NCBI GenBank assembly: GCA_035701885.1
Contig: DASSRG010000088.1
Span: 1-47,939 of the forward strand
Source of the DNA: Candidatus Limnocylindrales bacterium
Lineage (GTDB): Bacteria; Chloroflexota; Limnocylindria; Limnocylindrales; CSP1-4
Length of the DNA: 47,939 bases
Reading direction: 5' to 3'
Position numbers and translations under genes: made by a program. Below are positions 34,101 to 38,793 of the stretch, one piece after another (position 1 is the first letter of the stretch; the number at the start of each line of letters is the position of its first letter). The notes under the pieces were generated by a model. The model was not told the DNA's origin. It did no database searches and saw only the letters and a list, made by a program, of their open reading frames with translations.

Positions 34101-36794
34101 TCAGTGGTCGTGGGCCTGTTCCGACCCGAACTGGCCGTACGCGTTCTGCGGCGGCGCGCCGTGGCCGTGGCCATGTCCGTTGCCGTTGCCGTTGCCGTTG
34201 CCGTTGCCGTTCGCGCCGACGAGCGAGGCGGGGAGCACGGGCAGCAGGCGGCTCGAGTCGAGCAGCCGTCCCTCGGCCCGGGCCCGCTCCGCCCAGTCGC
34301 GCTCGCGGCGGATGTACGACATCTCGGTCTCGCGCTCGACCGCGGCGAGCGCGAGGAGGTCGATCATCGGCTCCTCGCGCGACGTGTGGCTGAGCTCGAA
34401 CTGGTCGCTGTCGCGGACCGCGTCGTACGGGCACGCGTCGACGCAGATGCCGCACAGGATGCAGCGGCTCTCGTCGACCTCGTACTTCTGCAGGACGCGC
34501 GGCTTGGGCATCAGCGCCCCCGTGGGGCACGTCTCGGCGCACCGGCCGCAGGACACACAGGGCGTGTCGTTGAGGCTCATGTCGAGCGGCGTCGTCACGA
34601 GGGTGTCGAAGCCGATCCGCATGAAGTCGTAGCACGCGGCCCCCACGACCTCGGCGCACACGTTGGCGCACCGGCCGCAATCGATGCACCGCGCGGGCTC
34701 GCGGAGGATGAACGCGTGGCTGTCGTCGCGGACGTAGTCGTGGTTGTAGCCGGTGAACCGGTTCTCGGTCACCGAGCGGTACCCCGCGCCCTGGTGGAAC
34801 TGCGGCTCCAGCGTCTTGAGCGTCGTCCCGTACTCGATGCCGAGCCTGCGCAGATCGCAGAACCCGATCGCCTCGCACGTGCACTGCAGACACCGGGTGG
34901 ACTCGGCGACCGCCTCGTCGCGCGTGTACGGGATCTCGTACTCGATGTAGTTGTGGTTCCGCGCCTCGGCCTCGAGCGCCTTGAGCCGGTAGCGCGGCTC
35001 CTTGATCTCGCCGGTGAACGGGACGATCGACAGGAACTCCGGCTGCGGCTCGGCAAGCGTCTGGCGGGTCCGGATCGTCGACAGGTCGTTGCCCTTGAGG
35101 TACGCATCGACCGCGTAGGCCGCGCGCCGGCCCTCGGCGATCGCCTGGACCACGGTCGCGGCCCCGATCCGCACGTCCCCGGTGCCGAACACGCCCGGCC
35201 GGCCGGTCTCGAACGTCACCGCGTCGGCCTTGAGGCGCTTGTTCTTCGTCGCCTCGACGCCCTCGTTGCCGGCGCCGAGCCAGTCGAGCTCCGGCCCCTG
35301 GCCGATCGCAAGCAGCACCCGGTCGCACGGGATCACGAACTCCGTCCCGGGCGCTGGCTCCGGGCGGCGGCGACCCGAGGCGTCGGGCTCGCCCAGCTGC
35401 ATCCGGATGAACTCGACGCCGGTGACCTTGCCCGTCTTCTCGTCGGTGATGACCCGCGTCGGACCGGCCTGGAAGATCGCGGTGACGCCTTCCTCGATCG
35501 CCTCGTGGACCTCGCCCGCCGCGGGCATGTCCTTCATGTCGCGGCGATAGACGAGCGTGACCTCCTTCGCGCCCTGGCGCACCGAGGTTCGCACGCAGTC
35601 CATCGAGGTGAACCCGCCGCCGACGACGACGACGCGGCTGCCGGCGTGGCCGGGATAGGTCAGGCCGAGGGTCGCGGTGCGCAGGTACTCGAGGCCGTCG
35701 AGCACCCCGTCCGCGTCCTCGCCCGGGATGCCCAGCTTGTTCGTGTCGTAGCAGCCGATCGCGACGACGACGCTGTCGAAGCCGCGGTTCTGGAGGTCGT
35801 CCAGCGTGAAGTCGCGGCCCAGGCCCTGGTTGCACACGATCTTGCCGCCCAGGCGCTCGACCGACTCGTACTCGGCCTCGAGGACCTCGACCTTCGGCAG
35901 ACGGTACTGCGGGATGCCGTAGCGGAGCATGCCTCCGGGGGCGGGGTCGCGCTCGAAGACCGTGACGTCGTGACCGGCGAGCAGGAGGTAGTACGCCGCG
36001 GCCATGCCGGTCGGCCCGGAGCCGATCACCGCGGCCTTGCGGCCGGACGGCGCCTGGCGCTCGAACGGGACCGGCGGGTCGATGCCCTCGTCGAGCATCG
36101 CCTTGAGCACCTGGTCGCCCGCGTAGCGGTGGCTGTCGCGGATCGCGATCGCCTCGTCCACCTCGTCGCGTCGGCAGTGCTCCTCGCACGGGGCGGGGCA
36201 CACGCGACCGAGCACGCTGGGGAACGGGATCGTGCGCTTGAAGATCCGGGTCGACTCGCGCCAGTTGGCCTCGGCGTTGGCCTTGAGGAAGCCCGGGATG
36301 TCGATGTGGCTCGGGCACTTGTTCTGGCACGGCGGGAGGCAGTACGCGTTGTGGTCCGAGAAGATCAGCTCGAGGTTCGTCTTCCGGAGCCGGCGCAGCT
36401 CGTCGGTCTGTGTCCGGACGACCATGCCCGCCTCGGCCTCGCGCGAGCACGAGATCGGTGGCTGGTCCTCGCCCTCGACCTCGCACACGCACATCCGGCA
36501 CGCGCCGAAGCCCGGCAGCTTGGGCTCGTAGCAGAGCGTCGGGATCTCGATCCCGTTGTCGCGGCAGACCTCGAGGATCGTCTGGCCCTCGAAGCCCTCG
36601 ACGACGCGCCCGTCCACCTCGATCCGGATGAGCGGCGTGCTCTGCGGCCGCTGCGGGCTCTGGGTCGTGATCAGCCGCTCGGCGAGGGTGTCCTCGATGG
36701 GCGTGATCGTGTCCAGGACGGACGGGTTGTCGGGACGCGGATCGCGCCGCTCGAGGGGCGCGTCCGTGTCGGGGCGAACGATGAGGTCGGCCAT
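34101..36794 (-). CDS. NuoG-like Fe-S subunit with an internal GltD-type flavoprotein module and a NuoI C-terminal half; no molybdopterin-like domain
   Basis: 897 aa from MADLIVRP (ATG 36794, TGATG overlap with nuoF). 2Fe-2S [23 protein letters not shown]. GltD motifs [39 protein letters not shown] and [13 protein letters not shown]. NuoG motifs [34 protein letters not shown] and [16 protein letters not shown]. NuoI-type [17 protein letters not shown]..FEL. The tail reads (GN)6(GH)3. Confidence 0.85.
   Translation of the reverse strand: [897 protein letters not shown]
34161..34212. repeat. Hexanucleotide microsatellite inside the CDS, encoding the [19 protein letters not shown] tail
   Basis: Plus strand reads gtggcc gtggcc atgtcc, then (gttgcc) about 5 times. 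Confidence 0.9.
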
Positions 36795-38131: not shown

Positions 38132-38793
38132 CAGCTCGCCTGCCCCGCGTACCCGAGCGATGCCTCGAGCGCCGAGCGGTACGACTGCTCGATCGCGGCG
38201 TGCGCCTGCCCGGCGGGCGGCAGGGACTCGATCGCCGGCGGCTCGAACCGCAGGTGCCGGTAGTAGCTCGCGGTCCCGTAGATGTACGCGTACCAGGCGC
38301 CGGTCACGCGGCTGATGTGCTTGAGCGCGCCGACCGGCAGGTAGCCGTACTCGGCCTGCGTCTCCTCCAGCATCGGGAGGAGCTCCTTGGGGTCGTAGTC
38401 GTGGCGCTCCATGATCTCGTCCAGGGCGCTCGTATCCACGGGGTCGAACCGCCGGAACGCCGCATCCGCGACCGGACGACCCGACCGGCGGATCGCCGAC
38501 TCCTCGCGCCGCTCGCCGTACGTCTCGGGCGGGCCCCAGTGGACGTGGAACCGGCCCTTGGTGTCGATGCCGCCCATGTCGATGCACTCGATCGGGCAGG
38601 CCTGGGCGCACTGGAAGCACGTCTCGCACTTGAGCGTGCCGTACTCGTCGTAGAGCAGCTGGAGGCGGCCGCGGAACTTCGGCGCGACGTCGGCGCGGAC
38701 CTCCGGGTAGCGGATCGTGGCCTTGGGCTGGAAGAACCGCTTCAGGGTCAGGCCCATGCCGCGGACGATGCCCATGCCGGGAACGAGGCTCAT
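38131..38793 (-). CDS. Chimeric subunit: NuoI N-terminal half (one 4Fe-4S motif) fused to the NuoE N-terminal helical domain (no 2Fe-2S domain)
   Basis: 220 aa. GLTLKRFFQPKATIRYPE..KCETCFQCAQACPIECID aligns with NuoI/Nqo9. LDEIMERHDYDPKELLPMLEETQAEYGYLPVGALKHISRVTGAWYAYIYGTASYYRHLRFEPP aligns with the NuoE/Nqo2 N terminus. Only 5 Cys are present, and there is no second ferredoxin motif or thioredoxin-like domain. Confidence 0.8.
   Translation of the reverse strand: MSLVPGMGIVRGMGLTLKRFFQPKATIRYPEVRADVAPKFRGRLQLLYDEYGTLKCETCFQCAQACPIECIDMGGIDTKGRFHVHWGPPETYGERREESAIRRSGRPVADAAFRRFDPVDTSALDEIMERHDYDPKELLPMLEETQAEYGYLPVGALKHISRVTGAWYAYIYGTASYYRHLRFEPPAIESLPPAGQAHAAIEQSYRSALEASLGYAGQAS

Follow-up and report, generated by a model that had tools for sequence, protein, structure and literature searches.

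How are electrons passed to the quinone by a respiratory complex I whose subunit NuoI is encoded in two separate pieces? The question is raised by a stretch of 47,939 nucleotides from Candidatus Limnocylindrales bacterium (contig DASSRG010000088.1 of GenBank assembly GCA_035701885.1), referred to below as the window. Its minus strand carries, between 28.1 and 43.1 kb, one tightly packed operon in the order nuoA-B-C-D-H-[220 aa]-[445 aa NuoF-like]-[897 aa]-J-K-L-M-N. The three genes between nuoH and nuoJ, referred to as the cassette, are joined by TGATG stop/start overlaps (220-aa gene to NuoF-like gene at 38131, NuoF-like gene to 897-aa gene at 36794). They occupy the place of nuoI in 11-gene operons, such as the nuoABCDHIJKLMN operon of Dehalococcoides, which encodes an 11-subunit enzyme of the NDH-1 type, and not the D/H gap of 14-gene operons.

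A sequence-only reading of this DNA had proposed that a NuoE'-NuoF-NuoG' cassette for the input of reduced nicotinamide adenine dinucleotide (NADH) interrupts nuoI in the loop that separates its two ferredoxin motifs, with the two halves fused to the cassette. What it stated of the open reading frames, the gene order, the TGATG overlaps and the coordinates of the Cys motifs was found to hold, as was its placing of the cassette in the nuoI slot between nuoH and nuoJ. In our analysis the best explanation overall, to which we would give a probability of about 0.7, is a complex I that arose when an Nfn/Stn-type E-F-G operon entered the nuoI gene of an A-B-C-D-H-I-J-K-L-M-N operon with 11 genes. 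The position of the cassette, between H and J instead of D and H, fits such an insertion.

NuoI is split into two complementary halves

The cassette genes and their predicted domains are as follows.

38131-38793, minus strand: 220-aa gene, whole open reading frame
38539-38793, minus strand: N-terminal half of NuoI (220-aa protein, residues 1 to about 85), from NuoI hidden Markov models and PDB TYKY/NuoI chains; first CxxCxxCxxxCP motif at 38593-38628
38446-38538, minus strand: linker (220-aa protein, residues about 86-116, WGPPETYGERREESAIRRSGRP...), strongly conserved across 77 orthologues and matching no profile
38230-38445, minus strand: NuoE/NfnC/HydC-type N-terminal helical domain (220-aa protein, residues 117-188), from PF01257 positions 2-63 of 145 and PDB 9bov_C, 9n5u_C (NfnC) and 8oh5_A
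36794-38131, minus strand: NuoF/NfnB-like flavoprotein core of 445 aa, with a flavin mononucleotide (FMN)/NADH fold and an N3-type cluster region, from PF01512 and PF10589 and from 9bov_B, 9n5u_B and HydB
34101-36794, minus strand: 897-aa gene, whole open reading frame
36402-36626, minus strand: NuoG/HydA-type 2Fe-2S domain (897-aa protein, residues 57-131), from PF13510, E=5.5e-21
35085-36338, minus strand: GltD/NfnB-like insert (897-aa protein, residues 153-570), from PF14691 and PF07992, NF009454 and TIGR01318, and PDB 9bov_A, 8oh5_C, 4ylf_B and 5jca_L
34497-34706, minus strand: NuoG/HydA-type 2x[4Fe-4S] ferredoxin domain (897-aa protein, residues 697-766), from PF22117 and alignment to NfnA and StnC
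34215-34496, minus strand: C-terminal half of NuoI (897-aa protein, residues 767 to about 860), from TIGR01971 positions 71-116 and PDB NuoI second halves; second CxxCxxCxxxCP motif at 34428-34463, followed by a conserved helical extension
34104-34214, minus strand: variable low-complexity tail of the 897-aa protein, rich in G, N and H, with a (GCCGTT)x9 repeat (TRF, 34158-34211)

A six-frame scan of the whole window found the motif CxxCxxCxxxCP only three times, at 38593-38628 (CETCFQCAQACP, in the 220-aa protein), at 34524-34559 and at 34428-34463, and it found no intact nuoI in the 47.9 kb. The motif at 34524-34559 is part of the NuoG-type ferredoxin domain of the 897-aa protein. This domain has two Cys motifs, only the second being of the CxxCxxCxxxCP form, and these two pair together as in NfnA and StnC; thus one orphan motif is left in each of the 220-aa and 897-aa proteins.

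Profile and structure searches connected both orphan motifs with NuoI. Residues 8-82 of the 220-aa protein matched the NuoI models NF004536 (E=7.5e-15) and TIGR01971 (positions 1-63 of 121, E=2.6e-13), the match ending with the first motif, and residues 9-73 had TYKY/NuoI chains as their top PDB matches (E=1.2e-11). The model was taken up again by residues 767-812 of the 897-aa protein (TIGR01971 positions 71-116, E=1.1e-12). When the tail of this protein was searched in isolation, NuoI models were its top NCBIfam matches, and its PDB matches were the second halves of mitochondrial and bacterial NuoI/TYKY (E about 3e-12), in an alignment that passes the Cys motif into the NuoI-specific flank FE(L/F)S..(T)REE (TYKY residues 162-209). 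Such flanks, whose absence had been named beforehand as telling against a split nuoI, are thus present. Scored singly against TIGR01971, the halves reached 49.6 and 47.7 bits, so that neither passes the family cut-off of 113.05; joined in silico, they gave one ungapped match of 103.6 bits over positions 1-116 of 121, set against the same cut-off. A MAFFT alignment with nine canonical NuoI sequences showed all eight Cys and both Pro to be invariant, spread over the two proteins, and the N-terminal helix and C-terminal flank specific to NuoI occur as well, on separate polypeptides. The complementary coverage of TIGR01971 and this alignment bear out the proposed split: the break is placed in the hairpin loop that links the two ferredoxin motifs, with the N-terminal half fused to a truncated NuoE-like domain and the C-terminal half to the end of a large iron-sulfur (Fe-S) subunit.

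The joined halves were also modelled with AlphaFold2. A single-sequence run gave a predicted local distance difference test score (pLDDT) of 38.6, too low to be of use. A second run, for which ten canonical or NuoI-like sequences supplied the alignment and which is thereby partly circular, gave a pLDDT of 83-95 for the ferredoxin core. The top 48 PDB matches of this second model were all NuoI/TYKY/NdhI chains, and the root-mean-square deviation of its core from E. coli NuoI was 2.7-3.0 Å over 83-85 columns. Of the proposal that the two halves complement each other to a NuoI fold, it thus stands that the joined chain models as such a fold; within the bounds of a single-chain model, the joined halves are shown to be compatible with it.

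The input module is of the Nfn/Stn type

The E-F-G character of the cassette was upheld by the structure matches, but these place it with the Nfn/Stn enzymes of the Bfu family and not with the NuoEFG of complex I, and we read it as an Nfn/Stn-type module. Residues 55-789 of the 897-aa protein matched 9bov_A with E=3.6e-166, and the protein also matched 8oh5_C (E=8e-142) and NfnA (9n5u_A, E=3.2e-141, best stretch residues 51-586). Nearly half of it is a GltD-type domain for flavin adenine dinucleotide (FAD) and the phosphorylated nucleotide NADPH, with two 4Fe-4S sites, intact FAD (GSGPTG) and NADPH (GGGFTSMD...YRR) motifs and a conserved GIPQYRLPK segment. Because the FAD and NADPH motifs are kept, NADPH is a likely substrate of the GltD-like site. 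To call the cassette a module for NADH input and the 897-aa protein NuoG-like was therefore right as to an input module and too narrow as to its kind.

The classical molybdopterin-like C-terminal domain of NuoG is absent from the 897-aa protein, which carries the GltD insert. The NuoI C-terminal half starts some 20 residues past the last Cys motif of the NuoG-type branch, that is, at the point where the formate-dehydrogenase-like domain begins in Nfn/Stn; at this position NfnA and StnC have a cluster segment of the FdhF type instead. Judged by this alignment, half of NuoI replaces the dead formate-dehydrogenase-like domain at the end of an NfnA/StnC-like subunit. The (GCCGTT)x9 hexanucleotide repeat at 34158-34211 encodes the tail of the 897-aa protein, and the length and sequence of this tail vary between orthologues.

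Residues 117-188 of the 220-aa protein matched only the first 63 of the 145 positions of PF01257, together with NuoE, NfnC, HydC and FdsG chains. The thioredoxin-like 2Fe-2S domain of NuoE, which holds BfuC cluster C1/N1a, is absent from this protein, as are its Cys ligands. The NuoF-like subunit had 9bov_B, NfnB (9n5u_B) and HydB as its best PDB matches (E about 1e-101 to 1e-103). These matches are to the core only (residues 114-526 of the 584 of 9bov_B), and only PF01512 and PF10589 were found; the thioredoxin-like domain at the N-terminus of BfuB and its C-terminal 2x[4Fe-4S] ferredoxin domain (B3/B4) are absent.

The arrangement recurs in two phyla

Related loci were sought by a scan of one genome per GTDB species, which gave more than 599 pattern matches and at least 475 confirmed relatives of the 220-aa protein. 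Synteny and conservation were taken from the best 80 of these at least 475 loci, each of about 20 kb. All but one of the 80 are labelled Limnocylindrales, Chloroflexota or a Chloroflexota subgroup; the remaining one (L078) is labelled 'Patescibacteria group'. Searched by tblastn with 13 window proteins, essentially every locus long enough showed the order A-B-C-D-H-220-F-897-J-K-L-M-N, and no nuoI was found in any inspected locus. The set includes a closed 3.62-Mb chromosome and Mb-scale contigs. The junctions thus recur in independent assemblies, which disposes of the concern, raised by the sequence-only reading itself, that they might reflect misassembly.

The 897-aa gene is the most conserved (82-95% identity), with 58-86% for the NuoF-like gene. 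More than 95% invariant are both NuoI halves (the N-terminal half in 77 orthologues), the loop after the first motif and some 60 residues after the second motif. When named cultured hosts were sought, the source names giving an organism were those of metagenome-assembled genomes or of a class or phylum only.

Outside this set, a search of 1.84 billion representative proteins returned distant fusions of the NuoI N-terminal half to NuoE (27-50% identity), in which the 2Fe-2S domain of NuoE is complete, degenerate or truncated. A clade assigned by its source names to the Thermoleophilia (Actinomycetota) is represented by locus L081, with the operon A-B-C-D-H-[253 aa]-[636 aa BfuB-type F]-[824 aa]-J-K-L-M-N. 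Its 636-aa F subunit has the N-terminal thioredoxin-like and C-terminal ferredoxin domains and the canonical motifs NGDEGDPG and CGKCVPC, and its 824-aa protein terminates in the same NuoI C-terminal half as the 897-aa protein of the window. The junction between G' and this half, CPTGA(L/I)xxxxR(V/L)L..Y.(V/L)D.SRCI(L/F)C, is common to Limnocylindria, to two further lineages of Chloroflexota and to the Thermoleophilia-type locus.

By these comparisons the arrangement is a conserved family of two phyla and not a one-off. Since the junction is common to all the lineages, a single founding event is suggested for it. The loss of bifurcation hardware is graded among the relatives, which suggests that the window form derived by reduction from a full Bfu module, the Thermoleophilia form with all bifurcation elements being apparently the older, ancestral one.

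A predicted two-flavin route to quinone and the explanations that compete with it

It is very probable, in our estimation, that the split-and-reassemble architecture is attached to complex I. The two NuoI halves would reassemble into one 2x[4Fe-4S] fold, clusters N6a and N6b each taking ligands from two polypeptides, and two tethers would connect the input module to the quinone module (Q-module). The N-terminal domain of NfnC has been described as an anchor on NfnB (PMC11829005); an NfnC-type domain that anchors in this way and is fused to the NuoI N-terminal half would provide the second tether, and we infer that the clamp on the Q-module envisaged in the sequence-only reading may indeed exist. 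Electrons would enter at the GltD-like FAD from NADPH, and probably also at the NuoF-like flavin from NADH, and pass onward along the NuoG-type clusters. Their exit would be the branch of clusters that leads nowhere in Stn/Nfn, and from it they would go straight to N6a/N6b, then to N2 in NuoB and to the quinone, while protons would be pumped by NuoH and NuoJ-N. In NfnABC the A4/A5 clusters have been described as an 'overflow' branch (PMC11829005), and the corresponding C1/C2 branch of Stn as a non-functional remnant (PMC10482914). The window form would on this route be a two-flavin NAD(P)H:quinone oxidoreductase.

Whether such an enzyme could also bifurcate electrons depends on parts that the window proteins lack. 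The 2Fe-2S cluster of StnA and the C-terminal clusters of BfuB are, by published deletion experiments, required for bifurcation (PMC10482914, PMC11829005), and because cluster C1/N1a, the B3/B4 clusters and the BfuB N-terminal domain are absent, the window enzyme is quite probably non-bifurcating. That it is instead a bifurcating or confurcating Nuo-Nfn-Bfu complex which also uses ferredoxin would accord with the Bfu-family descent of the module, with the full BfuB and BfuC domains retained at the same operon position in L081, and with the 14-subunit 'Nuo-Bfu' predicted in other phyla (PMC9304861). However, the NuoE/BfuC 2Fe-2S domain and the N- and C-terminal domains of BfuB are missing from the window proteins, and these elements are experimentally required for bifurcation in Stn and HydABC (PMC10482914, PMC11829005). 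A bifurcating enzyme is thus improbable in the window organism and was rejected as the principal explanation.

Several observations weigh against a complex I driven by an Nfn/Stn-type module at two flavins. The NuoF-like motifs, checked across 71 sequences including 70 Limnocylindria orthologues, depart from the canonical ones in all 70 of these: the nucleotide/FMN loop is NGYGADP instead of NGDEGDPG, and Thr or Ser stands in place of the second N3 Cys (CGK(T/S)IPC for CGKCxPC; CGKTIPC in the window). Since both loop and ligand are changed, oxidation of NADH at this site is not assured. Association of the halves and seating of the module on the membrane complex are deduced from sequence and from the joined model, in which the two halves form one directly joined chain instead of a two-chain prediction and for which, as mentioned above, canonical NuoI sequences supplied the alignment. 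The absence of nuoI applies to the window and to loci of about 20 kb, and the genomes could elsewhere encode another complex I, of the canonical kind, or a nuoI standing by itself. All the genomes are metagenome-assembled, with taxonomy as labelled by their depositors. Two loci, L083 (source label 'Chloroflexi bacterium') and L084, have A-B-C-D-H-E'-F-G' with the same G'::NuoI-C junction and without J-N following, so that their antiporter-like genes must be elsewhere or absent. A third, L063, has no nuoH ahead of the 220-aa gene.

Downstream of the cassette, L083 encodes a flavin reductase, a small ferredoxin, subunits of pyruvate:ferredoxin oxidoreductase and a rubrerythrin (14330-18000; the corresponding region of L084 is 12917-13788). 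The second N3 Cys is kept in L083, and L084 has CGRCIPG. In L063 (6980-12078) the 220-aa gene and F are preceded by an 878-aa open reading frame containing a GltD-like paralogue, 33% identical to residues 152-805 of the 897-aa protein; rearrangement of the operon, the presence of a second copy or a chimeric contig could account for this locus.

The changed NuoF motifs bear most directly on the possibility that the NuoF-like subunit is a structural relic, the enzyme being then an NADPH-only, proton-pumping quinone reductase driven by the GltD-type FAD or, in reverse, an NADP+ reductase driven by the proton-motive force. The NGYGADP loop and the Thr/Ser substitution in 70 of 70 Limnocylindria orthologues speak for a relic, and so do the lower conservation of the F gene relative to the 897-aa gene and the intact FAD and NADPH motifs of the GltD part. 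The variant motifs are, however, invariant instead of decaying, and the subunit retains both GLRGRGGAG(F/Y)P, its FMN phosphate loop, and GEET. In all 70 Limnocylindria orthologues the last cluster Cys stands within the motif LC(D/E)HER, with a conserved His adjoining the Cys, and this His could stand in for the lost N3 ligand, in which case cluster ligation at the N3 site may be unusual. A decaying pseudo-subunit is thus unlikely, and the predicted site appears specialised rather than decayed. A relic NuoF is on balance considered unlikely, and between dual input of NADH and NADPH and input of NADPH alone we see roughly even odds.

It could also be envisaged that the cassette encodes a soluble Nfn-like enzyme that merely sits inside the nuo operon, its NuoI pieces being vestigial and complex I using a NuoI from elsewhere or none. 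The restriction of the nuoI search to the window and loci, instead of whole genomes, leaves room for this, as do L083 and L084, where the cassette follows A-B-C-D-H without J-N. Yet both halves of NuoI, including the membrane-proximal N-terminal helix and the eight Cys, are more than 95% conserved, the TGATG overlaps couple the genes translationally, and the inspected loci of about 20 kb contain no nuoI; we therefore regard a soluble enzyme as very improbable. An assembly or annotation artefact was rejected on the ground of the same order in 80 independent loci, the closed chromosome and Mb-scale contigs among them. The bare Cys motif is matched by polyferredoxins as well, so that the C-terminal motif might be a generic extra Fer4 motif of NuoG/FdhA-type proteins. 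Against this stand the alignment of its flank to TYKY residues 162-209, well past the motif, the NuoI families as top NCBIfam matches of the isolated tail, and the FdhF-type segment that NfnA and StnC have at that position. The chance of an artefact or a generic motif is close to negligible.

The explanation favoured here, a complex I with an Nfn/Stn-type module inserted into nuoI, can be extended more tentatively. A domesticated Nfn/Stn transhydrogenase would serve as the input arm of a widespread complex I of soil bacteria, a proton pump fed by NADH at the NuoF-like flavin and by NADPH at the FAD, with one Fe-S wire to the quinone; an ancestor with 11 subunits would have gained an N-module independently and for a second time, with intermediates still extant. 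In this full form the proposal is possible but doubtful.

Remaining genes of the operon and its surroundings

The membrane-arm subunits A, H, J, K, L, M and N are encoded together, as judged from open reading frames, synteny, PF00146 for NuoH and Pfam labels in an orthologous locus. The Q-module subunits B, C and D are present with N2 ligands and quinone-site motifs, PF01058 being found in NuoB and the motifs (GCPP in NuoB, HPSTHG and LGYLHRG in NuoD, among others) being read by eye from the translations.

42683-43054, minus strand: nuoA, open reading frame; syntenic in 80 loci; PF00507 in orthologous loci
41934-42695, minus strand: nuoB (N2 cluster subunit), PF01058 on residues 119-229; CCxxE and GCPP motifs in the translation
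41382-41930, minus strand: nuoC, open reading frame and synteny
40141-41379, minus strand: nuoD, open reading frame with GPQHPSTHGVLR and LGYLHRGVEK motifs; synteny
38798-40135, minus strand: nuoH, PF00146, E=4e-102
33555-34091, minus strand: nuoJ, open reading frame and synteny
33223-33558, minus strand: nuoK, open reading frame and synteny
31162-33216, minus strand: nuoL, open reading frame and synteny
29600-31165, minus strand: nuoM, open reading frame and synteny
28093-29589, minus strand: nuoN, open reading frame and synteny

NuoB has an N-terminal extension of about 115 aa ahead of its Oxidored_q6 domain, and in NuoH (445 aa) the Pfam domain begins only at residue 59. The extension and the N-terminal stretch of NuoH may provide extra contacts that compensate for the absent C-terminal domain of NuoG.

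Directly upstream of nuoA, a PF02636 (Methyltransf_28) protein is encoded at 43218-44627 on the minus strand (E=6.9e-45). To this family belongs NDUFAF7/MidA, an arginine methyltransferase that serves as a complex I assembly factor in eukaryotes. Just downstream of nuoN lies a 63-bp tandem repeat (27851-28055, 3.2 copies, 83% matches), and a second array, of 21-bp units, is found at 27552-27639. Two further open reading frames stand beyond these: 26828-27538 on the plus strand encodes a protein of the AhpC/TSA-redoxin family with a long N-terminus rich in Pro, Ala and Ser and an 18-bp repeat, and 26013-26759 on the minus strand, just past the operon, is a weak sortase-like frame.

Implications

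The cassette would represent an independent route to an input module, since its operon position, its donor lineage (Nfn/Stn) and its mode of attachment all differ from those of classical NuoEFG. It bears on the modular evolution of respiratory complexes, as graded forms are extant, from full Bfu hardware through degenerate to reduced. If the halves of the split 2x[4Fe-4S] fold reassemble, N6a and N6b would be inter-subunit clusters, and two covalent tethers would take the place of the non-covalent docking of the N-module. With an intact NADPH/FAD site wired into complex I, NADPH could feed, or be made by, the proton-pumping chain of Limnocylindria and Thermoleophilia, whose labels are those of soil and freshwater lineages. 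Should both sites be active, both pyridine nucleotides could be oxidised, and NADH/NADPH transhydrogenation could be coupled to quinone reduction or to the proton-motive force; the Thermoleophilia form with its full Bfu hardware could also exchange electrons with ferredoxin.

In the databases, members of the 220-aa family are named 'ferredoxin', 'hypothetical protein' or 'NAD(P)H-dependent oxidoreductase subunit E', and the large subunit 'FAD-dependent oxidoreductase' or 'formate dehydrogenase major subunit'. Judging by such annotations, pipelines that count subunits are likely to score these genomes as without NuoI, NuoE and NuoG, so that complex I is reported as incomplete.

Comparison with known systems

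Full-text searches, which covered few subscription journals, returned no publication that describes a split NuoI or places an Nfn-type module in a nuo operon. A survey of complex I operons lists NUO14, NUO13, NUO12 and NUO11 together with CD and BCD fusions and nothing like this operon (PMC4758237). Spero et al. (PMC4453560) noted Chloroflexi genomes only as 'missing NuoG'.

The nearest published proposal is that of Schut et al. 2022 (PMC9304861), who predicted a 14-subunit 'Nuo-Bfu' in Geobacter and others and an 'Mbh-Bfu' in Chloroflexi. As in the window, Bfu-type E-F-G genes stand in mid-cluster there and are proposed to replace the classical N-module. In contrast, Nuo-Bfu is described as A-N clusters with 14 subunits; the text contains neither 'NuoI' nor 'fused' or 'fusion', and describes no GltD/Nfn-type BfuA in a nuo cluster. 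The criteria for BfuB in that work include the ferredoxin domain IPR017896, and the window F, which is without it, would be excluded.

With NfnABC and StnABC (9BOV, 9N5U, 8OH5; PMC11829005, PMC10482914, PMC7483475) the cassette shares the E-F-G gene order and a large subunit in which a NuoG-like N-terminus is combined with a GltD-like insert for FAD/NADPH and with a 2x[4Fe-4S] domain; the window F is closest to NfnB/HydB and the N-terminal domain of E to NfnC/HydC. The large subunit of those enzymes ends in an inactive formate-dehydrogenase-like domain, whereas in the window half of NuoI stands at this place. The window module also differs in being without the C1 2Fe-2S domain and the N- and C-terminal (B3/B4) domains of BfuB and in its predicted fusion to a membrane complex, with quinone, instead of ferredoxin and NAD+, as the likely acceptor.

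In common with canonical complex I (T. thermophilus 4HEA, E. coli 7NYR), the window has A, B, C, D, H, J, K, L, M and N arranged as usual, the N2 motifs of NuoB and the quinone-site motifs of NuoD, and its two NuoI halves together give the eight Cys for N6a/N6b. Unlike canonical complex I, it has NuoI in two pieces on two polypeptides, the input module between H and J and not between D and H, an extra FAD/NADPH domain in the absence of the N1a cluster and of the NuoG molybdopterin-like domain, and a link into NuoI directly after the NuoG-type ferredoxin domain. The NuoCD and NuoBCD fusions resemble the window in that the gene boundaries of core subunits are rearranged while the cofactor sites are kept. 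These are fusions of whole subunits, whereas in the window one cofactor-binding fold is fissioned, with its halves on different foreign partners. A core Fe-S subunit that is divided within its cluster-binding fold, each half fused to a foreign module with a function that we infer, is thus the most unusual feature of this operon.

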